From an uncultured Anaerolineales bacterium (GTDB lineage Bacteria; Chloroflexota; Anaerolineae; B4-G1), in the NCBI GenBank assembly GCA_964421785.1, contig CAYQZG010000001.1, positions 73,853-137,852 on the forward strand: a stretch of DNA of 64,000 bases, given 5' to 3'. How positions within the stretch are numbered: position 1 is the first letter of the stretch; every line of letters begins with the position of its first letter. The notes under the pieces were generated by a model. The model was not told the origin of the DNA. It saw nothing but the letters and a program-made list of their open reading frames with translations, and searched no databases. Shown in pieces: positions 7,847 through 56,271 of the stretch. The translations under genes and the position numbers were made by a program.

Positions 7847-9412
7847 TTGGCAGAAGCGGACAATGCACGATCGCACCAAAGCATCGGAGTTGCTCAGGCG
7901 GCGGGCATCATCGCCATCGGGAACGTGCTCAGCCGTGTGATGGGCCTGATACGCGAGATTGTCAAGGCAGACCTGTTCGGGGCGGGGGGGCATGTGAGCG
8001 CGTTGGACACAGCGATGGCGCTCCCCAAGATCATCTATGCCCTCGTCATCGGCGGGATGATCAACTCGGCGCTGATTCCTGTCTTCTCAGACTACACAGC
8101 TCCTGAGCGACGGGACGAGCTTTGGCGCTTGCTCAGCTTGCTGCTGGTCGCTGTGACCGTCATCGTGTGTGGCTTCGTTCTGATAGGCGAAGCTCTTGCC
8201 CCCCAGTTGGTCAAGCTTTCTGCAGGGGGATTGCCGCTGGCCGACCAGCAGCTGGCGATTGGCTTGCTCCGTGTAATGCTGCCGGGGATCCTCTTCTTGA
8301 GCTTGGCCGGCGTCCTCTCTGGTGCTCTCTATGCTCTCAAACGCTTCACGCTTCCTGCCTTCACTGCTGTTGTCTTCAACATGGCCATCGTCGTCCTTGC
8401 GGTGGCATTCGGCGGCCGATGGGGTGTGTACAGCATGGCAGTCGGTCTGGTCGTTGGCTCGCTTCTCCAGGTAGTCCTGCAATTGGTAGGCTTGCGCGGT
8501 GCACGCCTTCGTATCGGTCGCGCCTTTCGCCATCCAGCCTTCCGTCGTATTGGGCGCCTCTATCTGCCCATCCTCGCGGGTCTGGTGGTAGACAAGCTAG
8601 CGGAGCTGCTCAGCTACCGCCTGGCCTCTCACACTGGTCCTTCCTCCACTTCTCTGATGACGTACTCTGCGACAATCATCCAGTTCCCCCTCGGTTTGGT
8701 CGGCACGGCCATATCCATCGCCATCTTGCCTACGCTCTCTCGGCAGACGACCAGGAGGCAACTCGGACAGTTCAAGTCGACGCTGGCACAGGGCCTACGC
8801 CTGGTGCTTGCCCTGATGGTGCCAGCAACCGTGGGGCTTTGGGTACTGTCAGCGCCGCTCGTGGGGTTGGTCTTTGGGCACGGACGTTTCACATCCGTCG
8901 ACACGCTTGCGACGGTTGCCGCGCTGCGCTTCCATCTCTTGGGGTTGGTCTTCGCCGCGGTGGACCAGCCACTCATCTTCTCCTTCTACGCCCGCCAGGA
9001 CACCTGGACGCCGGCCCTGGTAGGGGTGGCGACGGTGTTCCTCTACGTCATCGTGGCCTTGGCCCCGACGCTGTTTGCCCCGTTGACACTGAATGGACTG
9101 ATCCTGGCTAACTCGCTCAAGTGGGCTGCCCACGCGCTGTTGATGCTCTTCTTGCTGCGGAGAAGGATGGGCGGCTTGGCGGGAGAGGGGCTGTGGAAGA
9201 CCTTGTTCACAGCCGTTCCGCTGTCCGCTGTGATGGGCTTGGCTGTATGGCTTGTCGTGATGGGCCTGTCCCGGATCGCGCCGGTGAGTACGATGGGCGA
9301 GTTGCTGGTGGTCGGAGGCTCTGGGTTGGTGGGGGTCGGCGTCTACGGCTCGCTAGCCCTCTTGGTGGGCATGGAGGAGATTCAACTGCTGCGACGTACT
9401 GTCGCGGGTTGA
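7847..9412 (+). CDS. murJ: lipid II flippase MurJ (MviN family)
   Basis: about 520 aa polytopic membrane protein with MurJ N-terminal signature (IGNVLSRVMGLIREIV..FGAG). Start moved to TTG at 7847 because the GGGAGGAGG RBS lies inside the longer ORF. Confidence 0.8.
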   Translation: MAEADNARSHQSIGVAQAAGIIAIGNVLSRVMGLIREIVKADLFGAGGHVSALDTAMALPKIIYALVIGGMINSALIPVFSDYTAPERRDELWRLLSLLLVAVTVIVCGFVLIGEALAPQLVKLSAGGLPLADQQLAIGLLRVMLPGILFLSLAGVLSGALYALKRFTLPAFTAVVFNMAIVVLAVAFGGRWGVYSMAVGLVVGSLLQVVLQLVGLRGARLRIGRAFRHPAFRRIGRLYLPILAGLVVDKLAELLSYRLASHTGPSSTSLMTYSATIIQFPLGLVGTAISIAILPTLSRQTTRRQLGQFKSTLAQGLRLVLALMVPATVGLWVLSAPLVGLVFGHGRFTSVDTLATVAALRFHLLGLVFAAVDQPLIFSFYARQDTWTPALVGVATVFLYVIVALAPTLFAPLTLNGLILANSLKWAAHALLMLFLLRRRMGGLAGEGLWKTLFTAVPLSAVMGLAVWLVVMGLSRIAPVSTMGELLVVGGSGLVGVGVYGSLALLVGMEEIQLLRRTVAG

Positions 9413-9528
9413 TGGCTCATTTCCCTCGATTCTGCTAGGCTCTCTCCTTCTTTGGTCCGCGCGGACCGCATTCCTATTAGCAGTACTCGTAGGAGACAAG
9501 AAGAGGGTGGCGCAGTAGAGAAAGGTAA

Positions 9529-9555
9529 AGGCACCACCTGAAGGGTGGTGCCTTA
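9529..9555. terminator. hairpin (AAGGCACCACC/GGTGGTGCCTT) between convergent murJ and oxidoreductase operon; possible bidirectional terminator
   Basis: 11-bp perfect inverted repeat, 5-nt loop. Weak U-tracts. Confidence 0.35.
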
Positions 9556-9600
9556 ATGCTAGAACGCAGCTGCGTCGGCCCTTGTTGGTGGGACGCAACT

Positions 9601-11697: not shown

Positions 11698-11702
11698 ACC
11701 TC

Positions 11703-13478
11703 TTACTCTACGCAGATCGCATCGAAGGCGCAAACCTCATCGCACGAGCCGCACCTGGTGCACAGATCCGGGTCGATTTTATGGGGTTCTTTTCGCTCGC
11801 CCGTAATTGCGTTGACTGGGCAGGCACGCACGCAAGCGCCGCAGCCGGTACATGCCTCGGCATCGATGAAGTAGGTGATAAGGCTCCTACAGACTTTGGC
11901 CGGGCAGGTCTTGTCCTTCACGTGAGCCACGTACTCATCGCGGAAATACTGCAGCGTCGTCAGGACCGGGTTAGGGGCTGTGTTGCCCAACCCACATAGT
12001 GCGGTGTTCTTGACTCTCTCGGCCAGCTCTTCTAGCGTGTCGAGATCCTCCATAGTGCCTTTGCCGTCACAGATGCGGGTGAGGATCTCCAGCATCCGGC
12101 GAGTGCCGACACGACAGTACGTGCATTTGCCACAGGACTCTGTTTGGGTGAAGTTGAGGAAGAAGCGGGCGATGTCGACCATACAGGTCTCTTCGTCCAT
12201 CACGACTGCGCCCCCGGAGCCCATAATAGCCCCGGTGCTGGTCAGTTCCTCATAGTCCACTCGCGTGTCGAAGAGAGACGCCGGCACACACCCACCGGAG
12301 GGGCCTCCCATCTGCACCGCTTTGACCGGCTTCCCGGTATTGGACCCACCACCGATGTCCTGGATCATCTCCTCGAGGGTGATGCCCATCGGCACCTCCA
12401 CCGAGCCGCCGCGTGCGACCTTGCCGGCCAGGGAGAAGACCTTGGTGCCCTTGCTGGTCTCCGTGCCATACTTGTTCAGTGCTTCGGCCCCGTTGACGAT
12501 GATCCAGGGCACATTGGTGAGCGTATTGACATTGTTGATGATGGTGGGCTTACCGAAGAGACCGGACGTGGCGGGGTATGGGGGGCGCAGCTTAGGCATC
12601 CCCCGCTTACCTTCGATGGATGCAATAAGCGCTGTCTCCTCACCGCAGACGAAGGCCCCTGCGCCCTGGCGAATCTCGATGTCAAACGAGAAGTCGCTGC
12701 CAAGGAGGTTATTGCCGAGGTAACCGTGTTCATGGGCCTGGGCGATGGCGATTCGCAATCGTTTGAGCGCCAGCGGATACTCAGCGCGGCAGTATATGAA
12801 GCCTTGTTGGGCGCCGATGGCGTATCCTCCGATCATCAGGCCCTCGAGCATACTGTGAGGATCGCTCTCCAACACCGTGCGGTTCATGAAGGCACCGGGG
12901 TCACCCTCGTCGGCATTGCAGATGATGTACTTGGTATCGTTGGAGGCGTCATAGGCGAACTGCCACTTACGACCGGTTGGAAAGCCCGCGCCTCCACGGC
13001 CGCGCAATCCCGATTTCGTTATCTCATCGATCACCTCTTGGCGCGTCATCGATGTTACGGCCTTCTCGATAGCCTCATAGCCACCGCGGGCCAGATATTC
13101 ATCGATGTGCTCCGGGTTGATCTCGCCACAATTCCGCATCACGATGCGCACTTGCTTATCGGTGAAGGATTTGAAGGCTTCGGCGTAGTCACCTTCTTCG
13201 AAGGTCCACTCGGTGAGGGGTATTCCTCTGACAACGTGCTGATCGACAATAGCCTCGGCACGTTTTGGTGTCACCTCTCCGTAGGTCCACTCGGTGCCGT
13301 CTTGTCCGATAACCTTGACGATAGGCTCGAGAAAGCAGACGCCGAGACATCCAGAGATGCCGAGTTGAGCTTCAGCGTCTGCCCTGCTGAGGGCCTCACT
13401 CAGTGCGTCATACGTCTCTTGTGCTCCTGCTGCCAGGCCGCACGAGGCCATTCCCACAATAACTTCTGCTTGGTTCAT
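11703..13478 (-). CDS. NuoF-like NADH-binding flavoprotein subunit (51-kDa family, HoxF/HndC/BfuB-like) with extra ferredoxin domains
   Basis: 591 aa; Complex-I 51 kDa signature regions (GRGGAGFPTG, SLAGKV, ESCGKCTYCR) and C-terminal 2x[4Fe-4S] Cys motifs; 4-nt overlap (ATGA) with upstream NuoE-like gene. Confidence 0.85.
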   Translation of the reverse strand: MNQAEVIVGMASCGLAAGAQETYDALSEALSRADAEAQLGISGCLGVCFLEPIVKVIGQDGTEWTYGEVTPKRAEAIVDQHVVRGIPLTEWTFEEGDYAEAFKSFTDKQVRIVMRNCGEINPEHIDEYLARGGYEAIEKAVTSMTRQEVIDEITKSGLRGRGGAGFPTGRKWQFAYDASNDTKYIICNADEGDPGAFMNRTVLESDPHSMLEGLMIGGYAIGAQQGFIYCRAEYPLALKRLRIAIAQAHEHGYLGNNLLGSDFSFDIEIRQGAGAFVCGEETALIASIEGKRGMPKLRPPYPATSGLFGKPTIINNVNTLTNVPWIIVNGAEALNKYGTETSKGTKVFSLAGKVARGGSVEVPMGITLEEMIQDIGGGSNTGKPVKAVQMGGPSGGCVPASLFDTRVDYEELTSTGAIMGSGGAVVMDEETCMVDIARFFLNFTQTESCGKCTYCRVGTRRMLEILTRICDGKGTMEDLDTLEELAERVKNTALCGLGNTAPNPVLTTLQYFRDEYVAHVKDKTCPAKVCRSLITYFIDAEACTGCGACVRACPVNAITGERKEPHKIDPDLCTRCGSCDEVCAFDAICVE

Positions 13479-43455: not shown

Positions 43456-44952
43456 TCAATCGTCAAGCTCTGCGTCGGCAGCTGTCTCGCCTTTGACCAT
43501 GAAGTTGCTTATGTCTTTGTGGAACTCAGGGGCGTCGATATGCTTCTGAACCAGCTCGTGGGTGTCGACGGCGTTTAGCTGGTCGAAGAGGAAGGCGAAT
43601 TTCTCCCGCAATGCGTCTCGGATCTCCTGCCGGATCTCTGATGGGATATTCCAGACTTGCTGCTTGAAGGTTCCAAAGGCGCGCTTGCGGTTGTCATAGA
43701 TGAATTGCTCCTCAGTCTGGTCCTCCTTCCAGCGGTGGGCGTGCTCCTCTCTAAGGTGATCGTAGATGTGCTCACGCAGGTCATCTGGGAATGCTGGGTG
43801 TTCGTAGATTATGTTCTGGAAGCCTGTTGCCAGGTGAATCTCGAGGCAGCCCTCTTCGGGAAACTTGTGGAATGCTTCCTCTGGCAGGGTACTGGCGCCG
43901 TGCTGCACTGCGCCGCCCATGCCATACTCGTCCCGGGCGATGTTTGAAAGGCGCCGCATCACGTCGAAATCAATCTTGACCTGGGCCAGGGAGCCGTCAG
44001 GTAACACCACGCCGCCGTGAGACGTGCCGGTCTGGATGCTGATCTTGCTCAGTCCCACCATCCCCTCGGGCAATGTGTCGTTGTACCCGTCCATATATCC
44101 ACGTAGTTCCTCGGGGGTGCTGTTCTTCCCGCCCACCTCGCCGATCTCACCTCCTACCGAGATGGTGATCCCTTCTGGCTCTAACTCGCGGGTCACCTTG
44201 GTGAACCGCGCCGATAGCTCGAAATTCTCTCGCTGCTGCTCGGCAATCGTTGGCGGGGTCAGGTCGACCAGCGTCGAGGTGTCGATGTCGATATTATAGA
44301 AGCCGGCCTGGATACTCTCTTCGATCAGATCTTCCAGCGCGTCAAGTTCGGTGTCGATGCTCTCGGTGTATTTACCCGGGTTAACCTGGAAGTGATCGCC
44401 CTGGAGGAAGATCGGGCCACGGTGGCCCTCGCGGATTGCCGCGGCGAGTATGACGCTGGCGTACTCGGCCGGCGGCTGGCCCGTGTATCCCATCTCCGAG
44501 CGGGCGATTTCGAAGATCATTGCTCCTACACTGCGGGGCAGTGCAGCCTGGAAGACGGCGCGTGCCATATCGTACGCCATGCCGCGGAGATTCATCGCCG
44601 GGACTGTCCACTGCCCCTTGGTCTCACCTCGACCACGTGCACGATAGAGGTCGTTGATGCTCGCCGGCCGGATGCCTAGCGCTTGGCCCATTTCCCAAAT
44701 CAGCCAGCGGGCCGTGGCCTTCACATCATCGTCTGCGAAGACGGCGTTGTGGATCAGTTCGTCGATCGCCAATCCTTGAAGCTTCGTCTCGTCCTTGATG
44801 ACCACGGTTTCATCCTCTACGCGGACGATCTCCTCAATACTGCTCAGCAGTTCTTGCTTGCTTTGGTGAATCGTCACAATTCCCTCCCTGATAACGCAGC
44901 TGCTTCCTGGTGCTATGGCATCATTTGATATGAGAACGTGTGTTCTCGTCAC
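43456..44952 (-). CDS. class II (metal-dependent) fructose/tagatose-bisphosphate aldolase family protein, long form
   Basis: Collinear resemblance to FbaA-type class II aldolases (TVPAMNLRG, PIFLQGDHF, YNIDIDTS, ISVGGEIGEVGG) with N- and C-terminal extensions. Confidence 0.5.
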   Translation of the reverse strand: MTRTHVLISNDAIAPGSSCVIREGIVTIHQSKQELLSSIEEIVRVEDETVVIKDETKLQGLAIDELIHNAVFADDDVKATARWLIWEMGQALGIRPASINDLYRARGRGETKGQWTVPAMNLRGMAYDMARAVFQAALPRSVGAMIFEIARSEMGYTGQPPAEYASVILAAAIREGHRGPIFLQGDHFQVNPGKYTESIDTELDALEDLIEESIQAGFYNIDIDTSTLVDLTPPTIAEQQRENFELSARFTKVTRELEPEGITISVGGEIGEVGGKNSTPEELRGYMDGYNDTLPEGMVGLSKISIQTGTSHGGVVLPDGSLAQVKIDFDVMRRLSNIARDEYGMGGAVQHGASTLPEEAFHKFPEEGCLEIHLATGFQNIIYEHPAFPDDLREHIYDHLREEHAHRWKEDQTEEQFIYDNRKRAFGTFKQQVWNIPSEIRQEIRDALREKFAFLFDQLNAVDTHELVQKHIDAPEFHKDISNFMVKGETAADAELDD

Positions 44953-44991
44953 TACTCTTTCAGGTCTTCAATTACCGACCCGCCGTCTGCG

Positions 44992-45489
44992 TCATGCTGT
45001 GCTTCGTAGACGCCGAACGAGGATCAAGAGGAAGGCCAGGCCTCCTGCGAGCGCGGCTCCCCCTAGGATACCAATGCCTGTATCCGGCATGCCATCCGAG
45101 TTGTTATCCTGGTCCGTCTCTGGTGTCTCTAGGCCGAGGGTGGCCGTGGATTCTGGGGTCTCTGGTTCTGGGGTAGCGGTCGGCGGTGGTGGTGGCGGTG
45201 TTGGGGTATCGGTTGGAATTGGCGTGTCTGTTGGAACAGGAGTGTCGGTCGGTGTTGGCGTGACGGCAGCCGTCTCCGTCGCCGACTGCGCAATTGCCAC
45301 CGCTGTGTTCGTCGCAGAGATAGCCTCATTCTGTGACTCGATATCTGCTCTCATTCTCGGTGCTATGAGGAGTGCCCAGGCTACGAAGGCGCCGATACTC
45401 AGCACGAGCAGTCCCCCCAACACCGCGACGAGGATGACGAAACTTCGGTTGGTCCCTTCTTCCTGGATGACTTCTTCTTGGTTCTCCAT
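44992..45489 (-). CDS. small surface protein: N-terminal TM, PT-rich linker, C-terminal sortase-type sorting signal (MPDTG + hydrophobic + RRLR)
   Basis: 165 aa; TPTPTDTPVPTDTPIPTDTP linker; C-terminal tripartite signal read directly. Confidence 0.4.
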   Translation of the reverse strand: MENQEEVIQEEGTNRSFVILVAVLGGLLVLSIGAFVAWALLIAPRMRADIESQNEAISATNTAVAIAQSATETAAVTPTPTDTPVPTDTPIPTDTPTPPPPPPTATPEPETPESTATLGLETPETDQDNNSDGMPDTGIGILGGAALAGGLAFLLILVRRLRSTA

Positions 45490-45542
45490 GTCTCTCCTCC
45501 AATGATAGACTTCTTCTTGTGACGCAGCGGCTTACTGGATCG

Positions 45543-46604
45543 CTAGCGTAGGATCTCCAAGTTGACCAGTGGGACAAAGACAGGTTCGTCTTGGCCGATA
45601 TTCACCTCCGCGCAGTAGGCTCGGGCGCCTGTCGCTATGCGACGCGCATACCGGGGGATGTCGATGACCGTTCCCACCGAGCCCAGGTACGGGGCGCGGA
45701 CAACTCTTACTCGTGCTCCCTGTGTGAGCTCTCCATGCCTTTCCATCTCATCTGCTGATAGCTTCCTGTTCGGCATAGGTATGATGAGCTCTGGTCGCTT
45801 TGAGCCCCACCGCATCTCGGTCTGACCGCTGACTGATACTTCTCTTTCTTCGTTGTCCTTGAGCAAGTTGAAGATGTCCTTCATCATCGGAAGGTCTCCA
45901 AAGCCATCGGTGACAATGATGGGGAAGGGCAGTCGCTCGGCGGTAGGAATCAGCTCTGGAGAAAGACCGCCAGTCACGATGCCTCGCACCTCGACCTCCT
46001 GTGCTCGCGCGAGGGTTTCCCGATCCAAGATTGTACCAGCGACGAGAACGCTGCCGTGGCAGGATGGGTCAATGGCGCGGGCCTGCAATGACTCGCTAGA
46101 TCGCCTCGTTATGCCTTTCAGCGCGCCGACGCTCTCCTCTCCCGAACCCCAAGCACCTTGGATGAGAGCGCCCGTTGTCTCAATGGAGACGACCTGGTCG
46201 TCTCTGATATTCAATACGGTCCCTGGGATGTGGGCGTGTAGCTCAAAAGGCGTGGGTTGAGCCTCGATAAGCGCTCGTCCTCCCCCTGTGGCGGTCATAA
46301 TGCCATCAATGGGGGACTCGACCGAACGGCCGAGAAGGCCAACTCTTCTGGCAATTATATCTCCCCGATGGACTATGTCTCCCAATTTGACCCTCAGGCA
46401 GTCCTCAGCCTCCGACGCCGAAACATCCAACAGGCGCGCAACAGCCACGATTCGAAAGTCGCTGGGCAAGTTGGTACGGGCCACGACCTGCGTGGATTCG
46501 ACGCGGTCACCGGGGTGGACCAGCACTTCCCCTGGTTTTGGCAGAACCCGTTCGCGATGAATTCTCGTCAGAGATGATACCCTAGTTTCGAAAGCGTAGT
46601 ACAT
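45543..46604 (-). CDS. hypothetical protein with barrel-sandwich/lipoyl-like hybrid motif; last gene of 7-gene operon
   Basis: 353 aa; segment VESTQVVARTNLPSD...KLGDIVHRGDIIARRVG resembles biotinyl/lipoyl-like hybrid domains of HlyD/M23 N-termini; no family assigned. Confidence 0.35.
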   Translation of the reverse strand: MYYAFETRVSSLTRIHRERVLPKPGEVLVHPGDRVESTQVVARTNLPSDFRIVAVARLLDVSASEAEDCLRVKLGDIVHRGDIIARRVGLLGRSVESPIDGIMTATGGGRALIEAQPTPFELHAHIPGTVLNIRDDQVVSIETTGALIQGAWGSGEESVGALKGITRRSSESLQARAIDPSCHGSVLVAGTILDRETLARAQEVEVRGIVTGGLSPELIPTAERLPFPIIVTDGFGDLPMMKDIFNLLKDNEEREVSVSGQTEMRWGSKRPELIIPMPNRKLSADEMERHGELTQGARVRVVRAPYLGSVGTVIDIPRYARRIATGARAYCAEVNIGQDEPVFVPLVNLEILR

Positions 46605-46651: not shown

Positions 46652-48412
46652 TTAACCGCCGACATCATATAACCATTGCCGCATCTGCTCGCGACGTTGT
46701 TCAGGCTCGGCTGGCAGAGACAACGGACGACCTCGGGCATCAATAATGAGGCCAGTCAATCCTCCGCTCACGCGTCGCTTGCCGGTTTTTCCCTGTCCTC
46801 CAAGCCCGACATCGAAACCACGTTTTGGGCGCAGCTCCAGAACTGCCTCTTGCCCAAGAGGTAATGGTAAGACCTCCAAGTCTCCATGACGGACCTCGAT
46901 ATCCAATTCGCTTCCATCGTCGTATGAGACACTGACTCTCAGGATGGTGTCGCCCAGTTTAGCATCTCCTCCGACTGGTGTGACCACAGTAGCAAGATTG
47001 GTGAATACTCCGGCATCCAGGGCCTCCACTGCCGCTAGCGGCTTGACTGCCGCGACATTCCCCAGCGCTGGTGCAAGTCCATATGTATCCAACACGAGCG
47101 TGCTCACGCCGATCGGCTGCAGTGCGTTGAGCACGGCTAGAGCGGCTTGTCCAGGTCGGGGGGCTTGAGTCAGAGGAGCTCCGCTGATGAGAATGGTGTC
47201 GCACAGGGGCGTAAGGTCAGGGTAGGGTTGGGCAGTGCCAGGCTTCCAGCCCGGACGGGCTGTCTCGAGTGTGGTGCATATTGTCGCGCAAGTTAGTGCT
47301 TGTTCCACCCAGAGATCACGGTTCACCTGAGGGATGCTAGTCGGGTGCATTCTCTTGTTGATCAGCAATGCCTGGACTTGGTGATAGGGTATCGATTCAG
47401 GAAGCCAGCGGGCGATGGCCTCAAAGCCTTCTTCCTCTAGCAGACGCTCCCCTCCGAAGGCCGCGCCCAGGCCACCGTGGATAGTCGTGTAAAGCTGTTC
47501 GTCGAAGACGGCAGCTACTGTGGTATTGGCCCCTCCAGCGTCGATGCCCAGAACGCCCCTGGTTGGATCGCCCAGGTGCCATAGATACTGGATCAGTTGG
47601 CCAAATGCCTGCGCAGTCGGGGCAATGCGTACCGGGCTCCAGTCTGCCAGGGTAGCAAAGCCTGGAAGCTGTCGCATCTTCTGCTGTCTGAAGATGTTCT
47701 GGAGTTCCTGTTGGGCATCCTGTAGTTGCTCGACTTCGAGTATCGGGCGAACGTTGTCGACGACACGCAGCTTCGTCTCGTCACCGACGATTTCGGTAAC
47801 CTGCTGGCGCAGTCGTGAGTTGCCTGCGTAGAGAAGGGTGGGACGCTTTCTACGATCCATCATCGCGCACGCCAGTGTCGCGGCTTTCACAGCGTCCAGC
47901 ACAGGTCGCTCGGCACCCCCGTCAATTCCGCCGGTAAGGCAGATGACATCCGGTGTGGCGGCGCGGAGCAAACGAACGCGGTCTTCGTCGGTTAAGGTGA
48001 TTTCCTGGCCTTCGTCCAGAACAGCTATCACCCGAGAGTAGGTACCCGCAGCTGCGCGTTTGGCGCTCGCGATGCTGAGGCTCTCCACCAGACCGCTGAG
48101 CACGATTCCTAGCGGTTCGCTGGCGCTGACGGTGGCCGTAAAGGCGTCTACACCTCGTCGGCTCGTTGCCTGAGGGGAGATGAGATCGCCCGTCTCATCG
48201 AAGAATTTTCGGCCCGTTATTCGCGAAATGCGCTCCACAGCATGCCGTATACCATCTATGACGGTGGCTGGGGATGCCCCGAACGTAGTGGGCGCTTCTC
48301 CAGATGCTACAAAGCGATACTCGCCACCTATCCGATCAAGCAACATAGCTTTGGTCATCACGGTGCCGCAGTCGACGACGAGAATCGAACCGATACTTTC
48401 GTTTGCCACCAT
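46652..48412 (-). CDS. ASKHA (actin/Hsp70/sugar kinase) superfamily ATPase-like protein (MutL/EutA/FtsA-PilM-like)
   Basis: 586 aa; two phosphate-binding-type motifs at the start of each half (ILVVDCGTVMTKAML and LGIDAGGANTTVAAV), characteristic duplicated actin fold. Confidence 0.45.
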   Translation of the reverse strand: MVANESIGSILVVDCGTVMTKAMLLDRIGGEYRFVASGEAPTTFGASPATVIDGIRHAVERISRITGRKFFDETGDLISPQATSRRGVDAFTATVSASEPLGIVLSGLVESLSIASAKRAAAGTYSRVIAVLDEGQEITLTDEDRVRLLRAATPDVICLTGGIDGGAERPVLDAVKAATLACAMMDRRKRPTLLYAGNSRLRQQVTEIVGDETKLRVVDNVRPILEVEQLQDAQQELQNIFRQQKMRQLPGFATLADWSPVRIAPTAQAFGQLIQYLWHLGDPTRGVLGIDAGGANTTVAAVFDEQLYTTIHGGLGAAFGGERLLEEEGFEAIARWLPESIPYHQVQALLINKRMHPTSIPQVNRDLWVEQALTCATICTTLETARPGWKPGTAQPYPDLTPLCDTILISGAPLTQAPRPGQAALAVLNALQPIGVSTLVLDTYGLAPALGNVAAVKPLAAVEALDAGVFTNLATVVTPVGGDAKLGDTILRVSVSYDDGSELDIEVRHGDLEVLPLPLGQEAVLELRPKRGFDVGLGGQGKTGKRRVSGGLTGLIIDARGRPLSLPAEPEQRREQMRQWLYDVGG

Positions 48413-48423: not shown

Positions 48424-49083
48424 CTAGAGTCCCATTGCCCTGAGGGCCAGATCGATGAAGTGCTCCATACGACCAACGAATATCGAAAGCGAAGCTGTGA
48501 GTGCTCCGGCAAAGGCCACGCCGAAGGTGAAGATCAGGAACACGCGGCCAACCCAGGCCGCTCCATCTACGATACTTCGCCAGACGAAGCTCCCTGCATG
48601 ACCTTCAGGCTTTGTGAAGGTGAAGGCCAGCAATGTGCATACCGTCCCTACGACGATCATCAGGCCATCTAGTGGGCCGAAGCGGTAGGATTTCAGGGAG
48701 GCTGGGCTAAGTGCCTGTCCCGTTGCTTCCACTTGAGGGGCGAGCGTTCCCAGCAGGGCCCCGGCGAGGGTGACGGCCGTTCCGACGCCGATGAGATAGG
48801 CGATGGAGAAGTTCCCAACAAATGCTTGTCTAGGGAATCCTTTGAAAAGCAATAGGATGCCGAGCACGAGCGGTATCAAGACGGCGGATGGGTTGGATAT
48901 CAGCTTTGGGAACGCCATCCGGATCAGTACCTCGCGCACGGTCACGCCAAGGGAATAGCCAACCACTACGCCGACAAAGATGTGTAGGGCCAGTCGATAG
49001 AGCGGGTTGTCGCCTACCAGATAGCTCAATATGAGCAGCATTAGTACTGCCCCCAGGATGGTGCCGACCAACTCGGGTATCAT
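48424..49083 (-). CDS. integral membrane protein, hypothetical
   Basis: 219 aa, about 6 TM helices; 4-nt overlap with upstream gene. Confidence 0.4.
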   Translation of the reverse strand: MIPELVGTILGAVLMLLILSYLVGDNPLYRLALHIFVGVVVGYSLGVTVREVLIRMAFPKLISNPSAVLIPLVLGILLLFKGFPRQAFVGNFSIAYLIGVGTAVTLAGALLGTLAPQVEATGQALSPASLKSYRFGPLDGLMIVVGTVCTLLAFTFTKPEGHAGSFVWRSIVDGAAWVGRVFLIFTFGVAFAGALTASLSIFVGRMEHFIDLALRAMGL

Positions 49084-51275
49084 GTCTCTTCCCCTTTGGT
49101 CCTCCCCAAAGCATGGACGAGGGCGCCAACGATCATCAGTACGACAATGGCGATGTGACCTGCTGCTAGCGCGTCGAGCCGCTGTGTGGCACTACCGACT
49201 GTTCCGCGGCGGGCCTCGTAAGCAGCGGCTCCTTTGAGGCCGTGAATGGCTCCTTCCAACTGCCCGGCGTTGGCGTCAAGGTAGGGGCTCGCAACAGGTT
49301 CCAAAGCTGCACTGCCAACGGCGACCACCGGTAGTTGGTCTCCATACCGCGCATTGGCTTGTTCAATCCAGAGGCGGAGCGGCGTCGGCCTACTGGTCAA
49401 TATGAGAAGCAGCCTAGGTGATCCGTCAGCAGTGCCCAATAACTGGGAGACGGCAGTTGCTGTTCCTGGTCGATAGCCGATGAACGTGTATTGGTCTCTG
49501 GAGTCGGCGATCTTGGCCATCATGGCCCGCGCCACCAGTGGACCATCGGGGCGGGTACTGGCGATTGAGATCTGTGCTCCGCGCTCAAGCACGTGCGTCA
49601 GAACTGGCTGTGCCACAGCACTAAGCTCGTCGGCTTCCGGTGGCCCATAGTCAAAGGCTACGAGGACGTGATCACCCACGTCAAGCTCATCGACAACACG
49701 ATGGAGATTTGTGACTCCTGGAGTCGTCAGTGGTTGGGTTAGAATGGTCCCCATGCCCGTCACCAGGGGGGCCAGGAGCATACTTAACACAGCGAGAATC
49801 AGGAAGCCCGCTACTAGCCAACGTTCAGCCAAGCTCGCAGTGTCGGTTGCTTTCCTTCTTACCCCACGTTTGGGCCTAATCGTTGGTTGAATCGCTGGTT
49901 GACCTAGCAGGCTCTGAAGCAGCTCGGCTCGGGCTAGGTTCGCCTCGCTGGTCTGAGGCGCTGGTGGACCTGCGAAAGTGTCGGGCGCGCCAATAGCGTG
50001 GGCCGCGGGAATCAGACCGCGCAATCCTCTCAACAGCCCTTCGGTCTCTAGGGGCCCTTGGACAGGCTCTTCGCCCTCATCCTGGCTTGGTCTCAGTTCC
50101 TGCAGCCAGTCGGGAATATCTGCACGTTCCAGATCCGCACTCCAATCCTCTTCTGTGACGTCTAGCTCCGCTGGGAACGGCGAAGCATCGTCATCCTCCT
50201 GGGTTGGCGTCATAAGCTCGGTCAACCAATCCGGCGTTTCGATAGTCTCAGGAGGTGCCTCTGTGAAGGGGGAAACAGGTTCTTCAGACGTTTCCTCTGG
50301 CTGAGCTTCGGCCTCTTGAAGCCAGGCGGGAATCTCAGCCGGTTCAGGAGGGGGTATCTCTGCTGCTGCCTCCGTCCGTTCAGGTTCATCAGGCACTAGA
50401 AGTTCTTTTCCTGCTGTAAGCTCTTCAGAAGGCTGTGGGCCCGCGCTGGCTTGTGCCTCCTTGAGCCAGTCGGGGATTTCGATGGCCGCGGATTCTGCAT
50501 CGCCGATTTCCGATTCCCTTTCTGCAGCTTCGCTCAACTCCGACGGCGCTGTTGTTTCTTCATCCAAAGGTGAGATATCTTGCAACCACCTTGGCATTTC
50601 CTCCAGATCAGGTTCCTCAGTCTCGGATCGGTCCGTCTCCCTTTCGTCGCCAAAGGGCTCCTGCATCCTCGGTGGTTCGTCCTCTGGAATGGGGGATGTT
50701 TCCTCGCTGATTGGGCCCAAGTCACGAAGCCAGTCCGGGATCTCGGCTGGTTCTGGAGTTGCTTCTTCGGGAGTTCTATCTGGCGGTGAAGCCTCCATGC
50801 TGGTCTGACGTGGGGACTCTTCGCTGATCGATCCCAGGTCACTCAGCCAATCGGGGATGTTGGCTGGCTCCAATGGCTCTTCATCATCTTCGATATGCTC
50901 GTCGTCTTCGACGATCTCAGGTTGTTGGTTTGTAGACTCTCGGAGCTCATCCAGCCAGTCTTCTGATGTCGATTCCTCTTGCTCGATCGATTCGACGGTG
51001 GGCTTCTCCTGTTCTCCTGCCGTCTCATCCAATGGAATAGTTGGCAGCGAGAACCCTTTGATCGGCCTTGTCTTCTCCTCTGATTCCTCCTCTTCAGGTT
51101 CAGATGACATTGGCACGAGGCGCGCATTACATTTCTGGCAGTAGACGTTGCCGACGGCGTTGATGGTGTCACACATGGGGCAGCGCATGCCGGTACTTGG
51201 CAGTGGCTCGCCGCACTCATTGCAGAAGCGGCTGCCTTTTCGATTGGATGTTCCGCAGTTGGGGCAATAGATCAT
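49080..51275 (-). CDS. double zinc-ribbon membrane protein with acidic region carrying 7 tandem 'IPDWL' repeats and a C-terminal extracytoplasmic domain
   Basis: N-terminus CPNCG...CNECG and CPMCD...CQKCN; repeats ANIPDWLSDLG / AEIPDWLRDLG / EEMPRWLQDIS / IEIPDWLKEAQ / AEIPAWLQEAE / IETPDWLTELM / ADIPDWLQELR; TM helix then about 250-aa domain and terminal TM. Confidence 0.55.
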   Translation of the reverse strand: MIYCPNCGTSNRKGSRFCNECGEPLPSTGMRCPMCDTINAVGNVYCQKCNARLVPMSSEPEEEESEEKTRPIKGFSLPTIPLDETAGEQEKPTVESIEQEESTSEDWLDELRESTNQQPEIVEDDEHIEDDEEPLEPANIPDWLSDLGSISEESPRQTSMEASPPDRTPEEATPEPAEIPDWLRDLGPISEETSPIPEDEPPRMQEPFGDERETDRSETEEPDLEEMPRWLQDISPLDEETTAPSELSEAAERESEIGDAESAAIEIPDWLKEAQASAGPQPSEELTAGKELLVPDEPERTEAAAEIPPPEPAEIPAWLQEAEAQPEETSEEPVSPFTEAPPETIETPDWLTELMTPTQEDDDASPFPAELDVTEEDWSADLERADIPDWLQELRPSQDEGEEPVQGPLETEGLLRGLRGLIPAAHAIGAPDTFAGPPAPQTSEANLARAELLQSLLGQPAIQPTIRPKRGVRRKATDTASLAERWLVAGFLILAVLSMLLAPLVTGMGTILTQPLTTPGVTNLHRVVDELDVGDHVLVAFDYGPPEADELSAVAQPVLTHVLERGAQISIASTRPDGPLVARAMMAKIADSRDQYTFIGYRPGTATAVSQLLGTADGSPRLLLILTSRPTPLRLWIEQANARYGDQLPVVAVGSAALEPVASPYLDANAGQLEGAIHGLKGAAAYEARRGTVGSATQRLDALAAGHIAIVVLMIVGALVHALGRTKGEET

Positions 51276-51285: not shown

Positions 51286-51909
51286 TCAGAACTCGCTGTG
51301 GGGACGCTCGATACCCAGCAGGACTCTCACGCCCGTGATCACCGTGCCAAGCGCGACACCAAGGAGTAGGCCTCGGATCCCAGCCATCCCAGGCACGTGA
51401 ATCAGCCAGTGGCGAACTTCGCTCAGCCACTCGAAGCCTAGGAGGGGAGTCGTGCCCAGGAGAGACAAAGCCACAACCAAGACGAAGAGTAGGGAAGCTG
51501 GGGTCGGTCGATGTCGCAGCAATCGAACAGCAGACAGCGTCAGGGTGAAGACCACAAGCGCGGCAAGCGATCCCCCGAGCGGGGTGATGACGTAATCTAG
51601 CATCGCCTGTGTCATCTCACCGGAGGGGCCATAGAAGAGTGGGGGAATCCAGGATAGCAGGGCGGCCAAGAGCAGGACCAAACTGTGCAATCGCTCTTCT
51701 CCGGAGCCAAGTATCCGCTGACCATGGACTCGGAGAATGTTGAATATACCGAGGATGAGGGCGAAGGCACCGATGATCACGGCCCACTCGATGAGTTGAT
51801 CGCGGCAGGTGGACAGTATCGTTCCCGGAAACAGGTAGCCAGCCAGCGTGAGAAGCCCACTGACGGTTGCGAAGAAGATGGGTATCCACTTCCTAGTGAT
51901 ACGTCTCAT
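51286..51909 (-). CDS. integral membrane protein, hypothetical
   Basis: 207 aa, multi-TM. Confidence 0.4.
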   Translation of the reverse strand: MRRITRKWIPIFFATVSGLLTLAGYLFPGTILSTCRDQLIEWAVIIGAFALILGIFNILRVHGQRILGSGEERLHSLVLLLAALLSWIPPLFYGPSGEMTQAMLDYVITPLGGSLAALVVFTLTLSAVRLLRHRPTPASLLFVLVVALSLLGTTPLLGFEWLSEVRHWLIHVPGMAGIRGLLLGVALGTVITGVRVLLGIERPHSEF

Positions 51910-51954: not shown

Positions 51955-52713
51955 CTAGCTTCCGATGAGGGCCAGAACTGCTGTTCCCAGGATAGCTAGT
52001 GCCAAGATGAATCTTAGGATGTCCTCGCTGATCAAGCTCGTTATATATTCCTTCTTCTCGGTGATCTGGGCCCCGGCGGCGTACAGTTCCTCTCCCACAG
52101 CGAGACGGTCGACGGCGGCGTACAGGGCGCCGGTCGCCTGCGCGGTATCGACGGCAGCCATCTTTGGCTTGCTGCGCCGATCACTCATGTCTGCAATAAG
52201 GGATACTTCAGATCCAAAAGCACCTGCCAGTATGTTGGCGGTCGCATCCTCTGGTGCTCCTACAGGGATGGCTCCGGCAGAGTATGCGAGGGAAGAAGGG
52301 GCGACAAAGCGAACTTGGCTCGCATCGTAGAACTCGGCAATCTGCCTACGCTCATAGGCTCGGCGCAGCACGTCTTGAGCCAAAGGGAGAAGCGTGGCAT
52401 CGCCAACTGTGATGATTGGCGCAACGTCGTACGAAACCGCTGCGTCGACCAATCCTTCCAACACCTGAAGTCCTGCTAAGGAGGAGATTGAATTCTCGCT
52501 GCTCAGTCCTCCGCTTCCCAGAGCGATGTGGAGCGGCCTACCGCTCTCGGCCGCTCGCCCAAGCTCGTCCTGCAGATCCTTGAAGGCAGGGATCTGCCGT
52601 AGGTGGGGATTCTCCTCTCTTCGACGATGAAGAATCGTGAGCACGATCAACACGAGCGCGCTGAGAAGCAGGAAAACAAGGGCCCACGCTGTAGGACTAA
52701 GGAAATCACTCAT
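51955..52713 (-). CDS. bitopic/membrane-anchored hypothetical protein
   Basis: 252 aa, N- and C-terminal TM helices flanking soluble domain. Confidence 0.4.
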   Translation of the reverse strand: MSDFLSPTAWALVFLLLSALVLIVLTILHRRREENPHLRQIPAFKDLQDELGRAAESGRPLHIALGSGGLSSENSISSLAGLQVLEGLVDAAVSYDVAPIITVGDATLLPLAQDVLRRAYERRQIAEFYDASQVRFVAPSSLAYSAGAIPVGAPEDATANILAGAFGSEVSLIADMSDRRSKPKMAAVDTAQATGALYAAVDRLAVGEELYAAGAQITEKKEYITSLISEDILRFILALAILGTAVLALIGS

Positions 52714-52984
52714 CGCTGCTATGTCCTCGGATCAGTCGGTTTCTCAAGTGCGCCCGCACTTCGGAGTTACCCCATAGATGTGCGGCCTGCTCAATCTGCT
52801 TGTTAGATACATCTCTCACCAGTGGCTCTAGAGCTAAGAGAGCCTGATGGCCCAAGAAACCAAAGGTATCGACAATCTCGAGAAGAGACAAAGCCACTGA
52901 AGATAGGCCATTTGACTCGATCAACTCCGCCCATCGATCAGCTTGTGTCTGTTTTTCTTGCTTACCATTCACATTTAGATTCAA
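52706..52984 (-). CDS. small hypothetical protein, first gene of operon (coding status uncertain)
   Basis: 92 aa; 8-nt overlap (ATGAGTGA) with next gene suggests translational coupling, but GC3 is low. Confidence 0.25.
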   Translation of the reverse strand: MNLNVNGKQEKQTQADRWAELIESNGLSSVALSLLEIVDTFGFLGHQALLALEPLVRDVSNKQIEQAAHLWGNSEVRAHLRNRLIRGHSSDE

Positions 52985-53109
52985 GGTGAGTATATTCGAG
53001 ATATCGAAGTGCCAGCCATGTAGTCTCAGTATAGCACGATTTCGGGGGGGTGTAAAGTGCGCTGGAAGATTGTCTCTGCGTGTGGTTTGTCAATTCTTGC
53101 TTCTATGCT

Positions 53110-54288
53110 ATGATATCCATCGATACTAAGACTATGACTGAGGAATCTGATATCTCTCTTCCGTCTCAAGAGCCTCGCCACTGTCCTGTCTGTGGCATTC
53201 GAGTGGCTGCCAAGGCATCAGAGTGTCTGATGTGTGGGGCTTCTCTTGTAGAGGAAGAGCCTGAGCAAGACGAGGAGAAAGAACGTACGATACCGAGCTG
53301 GGTTGGGTCTGTTGCTGTGGTTGTGTTGGCCCTAGTCATCCTGGGTGCCGGCGGTTTTGGTCTCTATACGATGCTGGCCGTCGAACCCGAGCCAGAGCCG
53401 GTGGTGGTAGCAGTCACCCCCTCTCCAACATCCACGCCCGTAGCGAGCCCCAAGCCTAGTGACACGCCAGTGCCTACTTCCACTCCCACGCCTCTCCCCC
53501 CACGCGCTTATGATGTGCGAGAGGGGGAGACGTTGAGCGATATCGCCGATCTGTATGCGTTGACGGTTGAAGAAATCCTGGCTTTGAATCCCGATGTGGA
53601 TCCGGAGCTCATCCAGCCGGGACAGGTGTTGCTTATTCCAGCGCCCACGCCGACAGCGGACACCTCGCTTTCCGGTGAAGGGGATGGCTTGGAGTCGGCG
53701 CCAGGTGAGTTTGTGGTTCACGTCGTCAGTTCAGGCGAGACGTTGAGCTCTATTGCCGAGGAATACGGTGTGCCTGTGTCCATCATCCGTACTGCCAATG
53801 ACATATCGCCGGATGATGAGACGATCCGCGCTGAGCAATCCCTCGTCATTCCCTTGAGCACCCATACTCCGACTTCAACACCGACCGTCGATCCAAATGC
53901 CACGATGACACCGGTGCCATCCTACACATCACCTCCGCTGCTCTACCCGCCCGACGGAGCGGTCTTGACAGATGTAGTTCCTGTGCTGTTGCAGTGGGCT
54001 TCGATAAGCGTACTCGAGGGTGATGAGTGGTATGAGCTCTATGTGTGGCAACCGGCGGATGACGTGGTGTCGAGTACTGTCCGCACGCGCGCCACAGCTT
54101 GGCGTGTGCCGTTTGACTTGCTACAGAAGGCCGATGGCGATGCGCCGGAGTTCCATTGGCGGGTCCAAGTGGTGCGGGAATCCGCAGATCAGGTCTATGA
54201 GGAGGCTGGTGCTCCCAGTGCAGCGTATTCGTTTGTGTGGCAAGGGCCGGCGCCGACTCAGCTGACTCCTACGATATCCGCCCCTTAG
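53110..54288 (+). CDS. zinc-ribbon + TM + two LysM domains + C-terminal domain envelope protein
   Basis: CPVCG...CLMCG zinc ribbon; TM (VAVVVLALVILGAGGFGL); PT linkers; two LysM motifs (YDVREGETLSDIADLY..., HVVSSGETLSSIAEEY...). Confidence 0.6.
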   Translation: MISIDTKTMTEESDISLPSQEPRHCPVCGIRVAAKASECLMCGASLVEEEPEQDEEKERTIPSWVGSVAVVVLALVILGAGGFGLYTMLAVEPEPEPVVVAVTPSPTSTPVASPKPSDTPVPTSTPTPLPPRAYDVREGETLSDIADLYALTVEEILALNPDVDPELIQPGQVLLIPAPTPTADTSLSGEGDGLESAPGEFVVHVVSSGETLSSIAEEYGVPVSIIRTANDISPDDETIRAEQSLVIPLSTHTPTSTPTVDPNATMTPVPSYTSPPLLYPPDGAVLTDVVPVLLQWASISVLEGDEWYELYVWQPADDVVSSTVRTRATAWRVPFDLLQKADGDAPEFHWRVQVVRESADQVYEEAGAPSAAYSFVWQGPAPTQLTPTISAP

Positions 54289-54500: not shown

Positions 54501-55322
54501 TTGGACACTGATCGACAACAACGCTCCGTGAATCCCGACCGTTATGATGAAGCTTATTTCCTGAGCGCTTGTGAAGGGTACGAAGAGTTCGTATCCAGTG
54601 AGGGGCGGTGCCTGTCACACCGATTGGAGCAGGCTTTCGCTGCGGCGGAGGTGACCCCCGGCATGAAGGTGCTGGATATTGGCTGTGGTCGGGGGGAGAT
54701 TCTCCGTCGTTGCCTCCGCCTCGGAGCGGAGGCCTATGGCATCGACTATTCGGCTGTTGCTGCTCGAATGGCGTTTGAACTCGCCAAGGATGGTGAAGAG
54801 GCGAGGATCAGCTTGGCCGATGCCAAGATCCTGCCATTTCGGAGTGGTTCTTTTGATAGAGTATTGATGTTTGACTTGGTTGAGCACCTGTACCCATGGG
54901 AGCTGCGTCAAGCTTTGTCAGAGGCGCGACGTGTATTGCGATCCAAAGGGCGGTTGATCGTTCACACCGCTCCTAATGTCTGGTATGATCGGTATGCCTA
55001 TCCTGTGGTGCGGTGGGTGCGGATTCTGATGGGAGAGGGTCACAACTATCCTCGAGACCCACGTGCCATCATCCCTGTCAACCTAGATGTTCACGTCAAT
55101 GAGCAGAGCGCTTTAAGTCTGCAGCGCGCGCTGAGCGAGGCTGATTTCCGTGCCCGCGTGTGGTTAGACACGCCCCCACAAGATCGAGATGAGAGTTTCT
55201 TGTTCCAGCTTGCTCGCCACGTCTTGTTCAATTGGCCCCCTTTTCGCTGGTTCTTTGAACGGGAAGTGTTTGCGGTGGCGAGTGTCCACGATAAGAGAGA
55301 TGAAAGACCGCCGTACGGTTGA
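54501..55322 (+). CDS. class I SAM-dependent methyltransferase
   Basis: Motif I VLDIGCGRGE, motif II/III (RVLMFDLVEHL, GRLIVHT). Confidence 0.8.
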   Translation: MDTDRQQRSVNPDRYDEAYFLSACEGYEEFVSSEGRCLSHRLEQAFAAAEVTPGMKVLDIGCGRGEILRRCLRLGAEAYGIDYSAVAARMAFELAKDGEEARISLADAKILPFRSGSFDRVLMFDLVEHLYPWELRQALSEARRVLRSKGRLIVHTAPNVWYDRYAYPVVRWVRILMGEGHNYPRDPRAIIPVNLDVHVNEQSALSLQRALSEADFRARVWLDTPPQDRDESFLFQLARHVLFNWPPFRWFFEREVFAVASVHDKRDERPPYG

Positions 55323-56271
55323 TGAACTATCTATAGAGGAGCTGGAGGAGCTTCTGCGCCTCCGCAAACGACAGGAGCGTTTGCGGCGTCTGCGCGAGCG
55401 TGACAAGGAGGCAGCTTCCCTGGATCCGCTGGCCCAAGCAAGACCAGGCGGCCCTTCTAGTCCCTCGCTACCCAAGGCACACCGACGGTTCCAGGACACC
55501 GGCGCTACGATGCAGTATCGGGCTCGTACCGTGTCCGACCCGGCCGAGGGCAGATGCGCGGAGGGAGCTCCAGAGCAGCGTAGTTTCCGCATTCACTGGA
55601 GCTGGCTGCGCGATAAGGGCTTGCTTGTGGTTGAGTTAGGGGTATTGACAGCGTTGATCCTTGTCCTGGTCGGTTCGCTGGCAACCTTGCGCGAGATCAA
55701 CCAAACATCCAGTCGCGCACAGGTGTTGCCGACCCTGACACCAACCCCGCCGATTCAGGTGGTGTTGCCGGGCGGTCATACCCCACCGGACTCGCCAGGG
55801 GGGCCTGCTCCGGCGGAGATCCCGGCTCACCTGCAGGATCTGGTGGGTGCTATTACGCCATTGCCCGTTCCAACAGCTGGGCCGGAGCAGGCGACTCGTA
55901 TTCAGATCCCGGTTATCGGCGTGGATGCGCCCGTGGTGGAGGGGGATGACTGGGAGACGCTCAAGCGGGGGGCGGGGCATCACCTCGGTAGTGCAAATCC
56001 TGGCGAACGAGGCAACTGTGTTATATCAGCTCATAATGATATCTTCGGCGAGATCTTCCGTGATTTGCCGGACCTTAGTTTGGGTGACGAGGTAATCGTT
56101 CACACAGCAAGCCGGCCTTATCGCTACGTTGTCACGCAGAAGCGCATCATTGAGCCGACCGAGGTAGATGTGATGGAGCCTACATCTTCTTCAATTCTGA
56201 CGCTTGTCTCGTGTTATCCGTACGGTATTGATACGCATCGTATTGTTGTCGTTGGAGAGTTGAAACCATAA
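55300..56271 (+). CDS. sortase (class E-like transpeptidase) with N-terminal membrane anchor
   Basis: Catalytic His region (ISAHNDIFGEIF), TLXTC motif (LTLVSCYP), conserved Arg downstream; N-terminal TM. Start overlaps methyltransferase stop by 23 nt. Confidence 0.75.
   Translation: MKDRRTVDELSIEELEELLRLRKRQERLRRLRERDKEAASLDPLAQARPGGPSSPSLPKAHRRFQDTGATMQYRARTVSDPAEGRCAEGAPEQRSFRIHWSWLRDKGLLVVELGVLTALILVLVGSLATLREINQTSSRAQVLPTLTPTPPIQVVLPGGHTPPDSPGGPAPAEIPAHLQDLVGAITPLPVPTAGPEQATRIQIPVIGVDAPVVEGDDWETLKRGAGHHLGSANPGERGNCVISAHNDIFGEIFRDLPDLSLGDEVIVHTASRPYRYVVTQKRIIEPTEVDVMEPTSSSILTLVSCYPYGIDTHRIVVVGELKP

Follow-up and report, generated by a model that had tools for sequence, protein, structure and literature searches.

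Introduction

Tandem arrays of linear motifs are already known as a kind of protein element, and to our knowledge short linear motifs are well catalogued in eukaryotes and barely in bacteria. Eukaryotic motifs built around tryptophan include the DPW repeats (epsin/Eps15 and the AP-2 appendage), the GW/WG Ago hooks (GW182) and the W-acidic motifs (tetratricopeptide repeats, TPR, of kinesin light chain). Actin-fold proteins of the ASKHA group commonly bind short helical peptides of membrane partners, and the FtsZ tail on FtsA, PilN on PilM and MamJ with MamK serve as analogies. Bacteria of the Anaerolineae grow as filaments, abound in sediments and wastewater, and for the most part have not been cultured. 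The C-terminal peptide of FtsZ (CCTP), with the consensus D/E-I/V-P-X-F/Y-L-R/K, ends a disordered linker and is a docking peptide for FtsA, ZipA and SepF (bioRxiv 10.1101/2023.08.29.555414). Here, a 64,000-nucleotide (nt) stretch of DNA from an uncultured Anaerolineales bacterium (GenBank assembly GCA_964421785.1, contig CAYQZG010000001.1, positions 73,853–137,852), hereafter the window, was analyzed with a focus on the gene g4. It comes fourth in a run of eight minus-strand genes (g1–g8), tightly packed or overlapping, and encodes a membrane protein with an acidic tail, along which a short tryptophan motif, the PDWL box, is repeated.

The repeat had been noticed in an original prediction made from the letters of the window. 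The present analysis adds to that prediction the reach of the motif (two families, one class, 396 proteins), the eight-gene operon around g4 and a fit of the box, with W in place of F/Y, to the FtsZ-tail consensus. The box itself is absent from the domain libraries searched.

Results

Seven tryptophan boxes are spaced along the acidic tail of g4

The g4 protein contains a long, extremely acidic stretch at aa 56–425, as predicted, with 114 D/E versus 20 K/R over about 370 residues (22% Glu, 13.5% Pro and 8% Asp). Seven P-[DAR]-W-L motifs were found in it, with Trp at positions 143, 182, 230, 270, 318, 350 and 390; their spacing of 32–48 aa agrees with the seven copies about 30–60 aa apart that had been described. 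Two further copies are degenerate, EDWL (W107) and EDWS (W378). Eight of the nine Trp residues of the stretch are followed by Leu, and seven lie within P-x-W-L. When the stretch was shuffled 200,000 times, the maximum was 6 WL, as compared with 8 in the real protein, and two or more PxWL appeared in 722 shuffles (0.36%), as compared with the seven observed.

At the DNA level, a 23-nt family (5 copies, 70–83% identity) and a 53-nt family (60–77% identity) were detected around the motif codons. Tandem Repeats Finder (TRF) reported no tandem DNA repeat across the motif array and only two trivial short repeats elsewhere in g4, and the box copies differ by synonymous codons. The repeat that the original prediction saw in the nucleotides thus exists as short families of 60–83% identity, which mirror the conservation of the motif codons, and not as a tandem array. 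Because there is no such array, the copies are only 60–83% identical and their differences include synonymous ones, the repeat is maintained at the protein level, and recent DNA duplication was rejected as its source in g4.

An AlphaFold model of g4 was built on an alignment of 66 full-length homologues. In line with a disordered tail, aa 58–475 had a predicted local distance difference test score (pLDDT) below 50 apart from the boxes. The model has short helices at the degenerate EDWL and at six canonical boxes, all but box 1 (W143). In the 66-homologue alignment, I387, R395 and P396 around box 7 are at least 90% conserved.

The box core is conserved and its copy number varies

The g4 homologue search returned 930 proteins at E ≤ 1e-3. 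PxWL was counted in the best 120 of these 930 and was present in every one (120/120), with 3–18 copies each and a spacing of 18–177 aa. Across 161 full-length family members, 3–24 motifs were found (median 9); in the tails of these members, 1890 of 2025 Trp residues are followed by L/M/I/V/F, and the median composition is 23% D+E, 4.6% K+R and 16.5% Pro. A logo of 865 instances gave the consensus A-E-[IV]-P-[DE]-W-L-[RQ]-[ED]-[LIM]-[AGR]-P, with a conserved core from −3 to +8 (Pro = 0) and uninformative flanks; a broader form of the motif reads A-E-[IV]-P-[DE]-W-[LM]-[RQK]-[ED]-[LIM]-x-P. Trp is never replaced by F or Y in the boxes, Pro occupies W+6 in 65% of them, and a distal Pro run is not conserved. 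The logo suggests that the hydrophobic positions −1, +2, +3 and +6 lie on one helix face and that Pro and Asp form an N-cap.

Among the 66 full-length homologues, the opening EDWL box and the closing IPDWL box stand in invariant columns; the part of the array between them fails to align, which fits turnover of repeat units. The g4 orthologue of the metagenomic contig L001 (10618–11737) carries a 162-nt tandem repeat, 6.9 copies with 91% matches, whose unit corresponds to 54 aa with one box, indicating a recent expansion. Other orthologues show regular periods of 22, 25, 29, 34, 41 and 51 aa; together with the fresh tandem repeat, these periods indicate that the copy number is evolving quickly.

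No Pfam or NCBIfam match was found in g4 beyond residue 56 at E ≤ 0.1, the g4 homologues carry Pfam labels for the zinc ribbon only, and literature searches on PDWL, DUF6754, GlmL with actin, and Anaerolineae with zinc ribbon and tryptophan found nothing relevant. The repeat is therefore neither a known annotated domain nor a named repeat, as had been suspected, and it is not absent or unconserved in orthologues. The earlier proposal of a short linear interaction motif agrees with a core of about 10 residues that is kept in every orthologue, with linkers and copy number that drift, and with a predicted short helix; its interaction half is weighed in the Discussion.

The same box occurs in an unlinked TPR family

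A motif profile of 30 columns, made from 80 boxes, was compared with 1.84 billion representative proteins at E ≤ 1e-3, a motif search in other proteomes of the kind that the original prediction had called for. It returned 396 proteins, which belong to the g4 family and to an unlinked TPR(-HhH) family; all named ones are from Anaerolineae. Among 135 new top matches of the profile, 87 have the g4 C-terminal domain and 48 do not. Most of the 48 have an N-terminal TPR domain of about 250 aa and up to 27 boxes, sometimes with an HhH domain and a C-terminal TPR, and the named members are labelled 'tetratricopeptide repeat protein [Anaerolineae/Anaerolineales bacterium]'. The logo of their boxes, [ED]-[VLI]-P-[DE]-W-[LM]-x-[EGD]-[LMI], has the same core as that of the g4 boxes. 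Two of these TPR-PDWL genes adjoin ndk and rsfS, away from the g4 operon.

Elsewhere the box is rare. In 1.26 Mb of related DNA, it is otherwise exclusive to g4; neither a strict nor a relaxed pattern matched in 457,380 aa of background open reading frames (ORFs) from 83 related loci, and no other operon protein reached 8 bits with the core profile. Against the Protein Data Bank (PDB), the profile gave chance-level matches only, namely the start of the human SAV1 SARAH domain (6ao5_B, TAEIPDWLQ, E = 0.27), the exendin-4 Trp-cage (3c59_B, EWLKNGGPSSGAPPPS, E = 0.35) and a glycosyltransferase. A Trp-cage mini-fold of the exendin-4 type was rejected for the box, as the distal Pro run is not conserved and AlphaFold predicted a short helix only. 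By sequence, the box is a class-specific module carried on two unrelated scaffolds, which argues for a common binding partner.

The TPR-PDWL proteins have further features of their own. A second, longer Trp repeat, roughly ..QEQDDA[LV]AWLESLAAK[HQ]GA.PEEL..ETPP[EA]W[VI].., is present in three near-identical copies in P0263 (locus L083, 6231–10040) and as a single copy in P0160, P0207 and P0219. At 6770–11252 of L084, on a 3.0-Mb contig, two genes with a 17-nt overlap were called, one for the TPR part (415 aa) and one for the PDWL/HhH part (1083 aa) of a TPR-PDWL gene, and the 90% cluster of this gene also has a 1440-aa single-chain member; the split is probably a frameshift or assembly error.

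Layout and predicted topology of the g4 protein

The positions of all features are collected in Table 1. The N-terminus of g4 matched two Pfam models above their curated cut-offs, DZR (PF12773; 2.3e-8, 34.5 bits versus 27.3) and Zn_Ribbon_1 (PF13240; 4.3e-9, 36.3 bits versus a cut-off of 25), so that the two consecutive C4 zinc ribbons read from the sequence were recovered. Their cysteines (4, 7, 18, 21 and 32, 35, 46, 49) are all invariant across the alignment of 66 homologues, and the ribbons were modelled at pLDDT 81–88. In NCBIfam, the N-terminus of a Ser/Thr phosphatase family matched g4 aa 1–54 only.

The conserved juxtamembrane helix contains seven positions that are at least 90% conserved in the same alignment (R449, A450, L452, L453, Q454, L456 and L457), and the basic stretch RPKRGVRRK lies N-terminal of transmembrane (TM) helix 1. 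The domain between the two TM helices was modelled as a six-stranded alpha/beta fold at pLDDT >90, bracketed by two long helices. The layout of TM helix, domain and terminal TM helix therefore stands as predicted, with a domain of about 190 aa instead of about 250 aa. From the TM segments, the flanking charges (RPKRGVRRK, positive-inside rule) and the zinc-ribbon N-terminus without a signal peptide, we infer a cytoplasmic tail and an extracytoplasmic alpha/beta domain.

The neighboring g2 protein (DUF6754, PF20539) has the same TM-domain-TM layout. The g4 C-terminal domain was considered as its paralogue, which was unsupported: BLASTP gave no similarity between the two, and hhalign gave P = 0.036 with a probability of 1.4%. 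No specific fold could be assigned to the g4 C-terminal domain either, its structural matches being generic Rossmann-like only; a specific structural match to NAD(P)-binding Rossmann/SDR proteins together with a glycine-rich dinucleotide loop was not found in it.

Table 1. Features of the g4 gene, its protein and the surrounding operon (window positions; motif and helix numbers in aa of g4).
Feature	Position	Strand	Basis or occurrence
g1, 92-aa soluble protein, first in cluster	52706..52984	−	syntenic in L001, L002; 36/82 loci
g2, DUF6754 protein, TM helix at each end	51955..52713	−	Pfam PF20539, 4e-32; 81/82 loci
g3, polytopic membrane protein, 207 aa, no known family	51286..51909	−	80/82 loci
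g4 coding sequence, 731 aa, ATG start	49080..51275	−	ORF list; 930 homologues at E ≤ 1e-3
Double C4 zinc ribbon, aa 1–55 (CPNC..CNEC; CPMC..CQKC)	51111..51275	−	Pfam
Acidic, Pro-rich, predicted disordered tail with motif array, aa 56–425	50001..51110	−	composition, pLDDT
Degenerate first box STSEDWLDELR (W107)	50940..50972	−	W107 and L111 invariant; helix 107–112
PDWL box 1, ANIPDWLSDLG (W143)	50832..50864	−	D142/W143/L144 at least 90% conserved
PDWL box 2, AEIPDWLRDLG (W182)	50715..50747	−	helix 181–184; matches [DE][IV]P.[FYW]L[RK]
PDWL box 3, EEMPRWLQDIS (W230)	50571..50603	−	helix 229–232
PDWL box 4, IEIPDWLKEAQ (W270)	50451..50483	−	helix 269–275; matches strict CCTP-type pattern
PDWL box 5, AEIPAWLQEAE (W318)	50307..50339	−	helix 317–320
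PDWL box 6, IETPDWLTELM (W350)	50211..50243	−	helix 349–355
Degenerate box VTEEDWSADLE (W378)	50127..50159	−	motif scan
PDWL box 7 (last), ADIPDWLQELR (W390)	50091..50123	−	P388 and W390 invariant; helix 389–392
Conserved juxtamembrane helix, aa 444–457 (SEANLARAELLQSLL)	49905..49946	−	AlphaFold helix 444–457 and conservation
TM helix 1, aa 479–506	49758..49841	−	hydropathy peak 487–505; AlphaFold helix 479–506
Rossmann-like alpha/beta domain, aa 519–690	49206..49721	−	AlphaFold
TM helix 2, aa 695–724	49104..49193	−	hydropathy peak 702–720; AlphaFold helix 695–724
g5, polytopic membrane protein, 219 aa, no known family	48424..49083	−	66/82 loci
g6, GlmL/MutL-family actin-fold (ASKHA) ATPase, 586 aa	46652..48412	−	Pfam MutL 7.9e-64; 53/82 loci
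g7, 353-aa soluble protein, highly conserved, no known family	45543..46604	−	660 homologues
g8, 165 aa, N-terminal TM, Pro/Thr-rich, MPDTG + TM + RRLR end	44992..45489	−	sequence, TM segments

Operon and genomic neighborhood

The stop codon of g4 overlaps the start codon of g5 (ATGA at 49080–49083). Synteny was scored at 82 loci from 80 species-representative genomes, where most loci without g5 or g6 end at a contig edge. The operon order is kept in two metagenomic contigs (L001 and L002) with unrelated flanks, and the operon is present in at least 207 species-level genomes of Anaerolineae; the named genomes of the 80 are all Anaerolineae or other Chloroflexota bins (Anaerolineales, Thermoflexales). 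The genes g5, g6 and g7 are present wherever the contig reaches far enough, except in one clade of eight loci (L017, L030, L033, L037, L042, L050, L058 and L079, at about 7500–12000 in each). In at least six of these eight, the first ORF past g5 shares a conserved N-terminus (MYWVDVQTEGEWPL...), which looks YbeY-like.

The g6 protein scored 216 bits with the Pfam MutL model (PF13941; cut-off 27) and 97 bits with the NCBIfam GlmL model, as compared with a cut-off of 475, and the window annotation holds no glutamate mutase genes near it. Because the NCBIfam score is far under its cut-off and no mutase genes are nearby, g6 is, by sequence, a member of the GlmL/MutL family and probably not a GlmL equivalog. 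Its phosphate-binding motifs D-x-G and G-G-x-D-G-G are kept across orthologues. Beyond the Pfam MutL model, g6 has a C-terminal extension of roughly 120 aa that is mostly conserved, and it ends in a conserved Trp-rich tail (46652–46700, minus strand; consensus ..qqWlWDvGg, MRQWLYDVGG in the window). This tail, as QQWLWDVGG, was considered as a box-like pseudo-ligand; it is conserved and does not fit the box profile (<8 bits).

Neither g6 nor g7 has a sequence relative in the PDB. The best 120 of the 660 g7 homologues are 52–100% identical to g7, which makes g7 much better conserved than g4; the named ones are hypothetical Chloroflexota proteins, and Pfam gave sub-threshold hits only (RnfC_N, KOW). 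The polytopic proteins g3 and g5 were compared as mutual paralogues with hhalign, which was unsupported. The C-terminus of g8 resembles a sortase sorting signal of the LPXTG type in which the first residue is unusual, its PdTG..RRlR elements are conserved in orthologues, and a gene with a Pfam Sortase domain lies at 55189–56271 (plus strand), 10 kb from g8.

Just upstream of the operon, a plus-strand gene (53080–54288) encodes a protein with one CxxC..CxxC ribbon at its N-terminus, a TM helix, a linker rich in Pro and Thr, a pair of LysM domains and an unassigned C-terminal domain; this zinc-ribbon protein has no PDWL boxes. Long antisense ORFs were found opposite g8 (196 aa, 44915–45505, plus strand) and opposite the repeats (95–115 aa, Ser/Gly-rich, 49978–51144), and they are most likely artefacts of biased codon composition, not genes. 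The remaining window is ordinary chromosome (PNPase, MurJ, Nuo-like subunits, HisRS, UPF0182, an M50 protease, the sortase and a histidine kinase) and holds no tRNA and no Rfam match.

Discussion

We favor the explanation that the PDWL boxes are a copy-number-variable array of one short linear motif, which probably provides multivalent docking for one cytoplasmic partner. Each box would be a two-turn helix capped by Pro and Asp, with Ile/Val, Trp, Leu and Leu/Ile/Met on one face and an acidic polar face. The boxes would be strung along a disordered cytoplasmic tail of 370 aa, from the zinc ribbon to TM helix 1 of a two-pass protein whose Rossmann-like domain would face outward. The g4 protein would be a subunit of an Anaerolineae-specific membrane module, composed of the DUF6754 protein, a polytopic protein, g4 and a second polytopic protein, and this module would in most lineages be co-transcribed with the GlmL/MutL-like ATPase, the 353-aa soluble protein and a sortase-substrate-like surface protein. 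Every box would dock the same cytoplasmic partner, and avidity would let the array recruit or cluster several partner molecules at the membrane complex. The tail would be held extended and off the anionic membrane by its acidic linkers, and the array would grow and shrink by tandem duplication. Because the unlinked TPR(-HhH) family carries up to 27 of the same box, the partner is probably a lineage-wide hub, not private to g4. As candidates, we rank the soluble operon proteins highest, g6 before the others, followed by a receptor of the FtsZ tail (FtsA or SepF) and then by an unknown protein.

Several observations weigh against such docking. The g4 boxes were modelled at pLDDT 50–67 and undocked on any folded part of their own chain. 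The TPR domain was also tried as a cis partner of the boxes: in a fragment of the TPR-family protein P0256, the TPR (aa 1–260) was modelled at pLDDT >90 and two boxes at 30–54, with no sign of cis docking, a weak test with a single AlphaFold model. The clade of eight loci has g2-g3-g4-g5 only, followed by unrelated genes, with no g6, g7 or g8 within 2–9 kb downstream of g5, and its g4 proteins keep 4–11 boxes. Since the boxes are kept without an adjacent g6 or g7, the binding partner need not be encoded in the operon. Moreover, acidic Trp stickers could act homotypically, a different mechanism that would leave the same sequence signature.

If the partner is g6, each box would bind one protomer and the array would tether or nucleate ATPase assembly at the membrane complex, which we consider somewhat unlikely. 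The gene lies two genes downstream of g4 and keeps this synteny in 53 of 82 loci; the remaining loci are mostly on contigs that end early. Its product is a clear ASKHA member (Pfam MutL 7.9e-64) with conserved phosphate-binding motifs and no glutamate-mutase context, the motif and the operon are confined to the same class, and peptides of membrane partners are, as introduced above, common ligands of ASKHA proteins. These points are countered by the eight box-bearing loci without g6 or g7, by the TPR family, which is genomically unlinked to g6, and by the lack of a PDB sequence relative of g6. GlmL-family proteins are, moreover, mutase accessory or reactivase-like, and we know of no filament formation among them or polymerization in the GlmL/MutL branch. 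Were g6 the partner, the GlmL family would have a function beyond the maintenance of coenzyme-B12 mutases. It is unlikely that the boxes instead mimic the FtsZ CCTP and are bound by FtsA or SepF, the scaffolds plugging into, or competing for, the FtsZ anchors of the divisome of these filamentous bacteria. If W is accepted as the aromatic residue, the strict CCTP pattern fits 230 of 865 boxes and a relaxed one fits 426 of 865 (two and four boxes, respectively, in g4), whereas CCTP-type patterns had 0 matches in the 457,380 aa of background. As with the CCTP, a disordered linker precedes each box, the boxes are modelled as short helices, and FtsA has an actin fold, as does g6. However, Trp is invariant in the boxes where the CCTP consensus has F/Y, and the boxes are internal, repeated and followed by an acidic residue and Leu, whereas the CCTP sits at the C-terminus with basic residues after it. 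The box profile retrieved no FtsZ chain from the PDB, a W-to-F profile retrieved nothing, and an N-capped amphipathic helix could arise by convergence; no FtsZ, FtsA or SepF gene was found in the window or the 84 loci. The broader proposal that both scaffolds, the membrane complex and the TPR-HhH protein, use a Trp-type CCTP mimic to engage, cluster or titrate FtsA/SepF or the actin-fold g6 is given the same low standing. If FtsZ mimicry is true, the array would be an 'FtsZ-tail array' linking the envelope machinery of multicellular filaments to their division or septal apparatus, an undescribed way of wiring the bacterial cytoskeleton and a new layer of divisome or cytoskeleton organization.

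The boxes might also act without a dedicated partner, as homotypic stickers with acidic spacers or as weak membrane-binding amphipathic helices, which is very doubtful. The layout is indeed one of stickers and spacers, with 3–24 aromatic mini-helices in a tail of 23% D/E and 16.5% Pro; the array is common to two unrelated families, and no cis docking was seen in the AlphaFold models. Nevertheless, conservation extends over at least 10 positions, among them the non-hydrophobic E(−2), P(0), D(+1) and R/Q(+4), and generic stickers or anchors would need fewer, and the strong negative charge on and around the helix disfavors both anionic membrane binding and homotypic association. That the repeat is functionless low-complexity drift is hardly credible. 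The composition of the region is strongly biased, but drift is contradicted by the shuffle test, by the motif in 120 of the 120 best homologues and in 161 full-length members, by the invariant first and last boxes, by the synonymous codon variation between copies and by only 396 profile matches in 1.84e9 proteins. As judged from these comparisons, the motif is under purifying selection and is not a result of compositional drift.

With the multivalent docking array as the favored explanation, the box, of about 10 residues in 3–27 copies per protein, in two unrelated families of one class, gives a concrete handle on the conserved eight-gene operon, through pull-downs with its peptide and mutation of its Trp.

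Among known systems, the modules DZR and Zn_Ribbon_1 of bacterial membrane and signalling proteins include the N-terminus of g4 as a bona fide member, a membership that is limited to its first 55 residues and is uninformative on the repeat. The eukaryotic DPW, GW/WG and W-acidic arrays follow the same logic as proposed here, with many Trp motifs in a disordered or acidic tail and recruitment by avidity. Unlike them, the PDWL pattern is P-D-W-L-x-E-L, bacterial, helical as predicted and N-capped, and there is no homology. The pairing of g4 with g6 resembles the tandem WH2 arrays of Spire, Cobl and VopL/VopF on actin, in which short amphipathic helices in an array meet an actin-fold ATPase, and also MamJ with the actin-like MamK, in which an acidic repetitive protein acts on an actin-fold ATPase. 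In contrast to both systems, g4 has no LKKT-type element and no sequence similarity to them, and g6 is in the GlmL/MutL branch. The FtsZ CCTP is placed differently, as a single copy at the extreme C-terminus of a tubulin homologue, a tubulin-fold GTPase, with a basic tail, a placement that the boxes do not share: they are internal, number 3–27 on membrane or TPR proteins, and have [ED]-[LIM]-x-P after the W-L region where basic residues follow the CCTP. With W taken as the aromatic residue, the two are alike in the order of acidic residue, Ile/Val, Pro, any residue, aromatic residue, Leu and Arg/Lys, and in a short helix after a disordered linker, and the CCTP docks, among others, an actin-fold protein.

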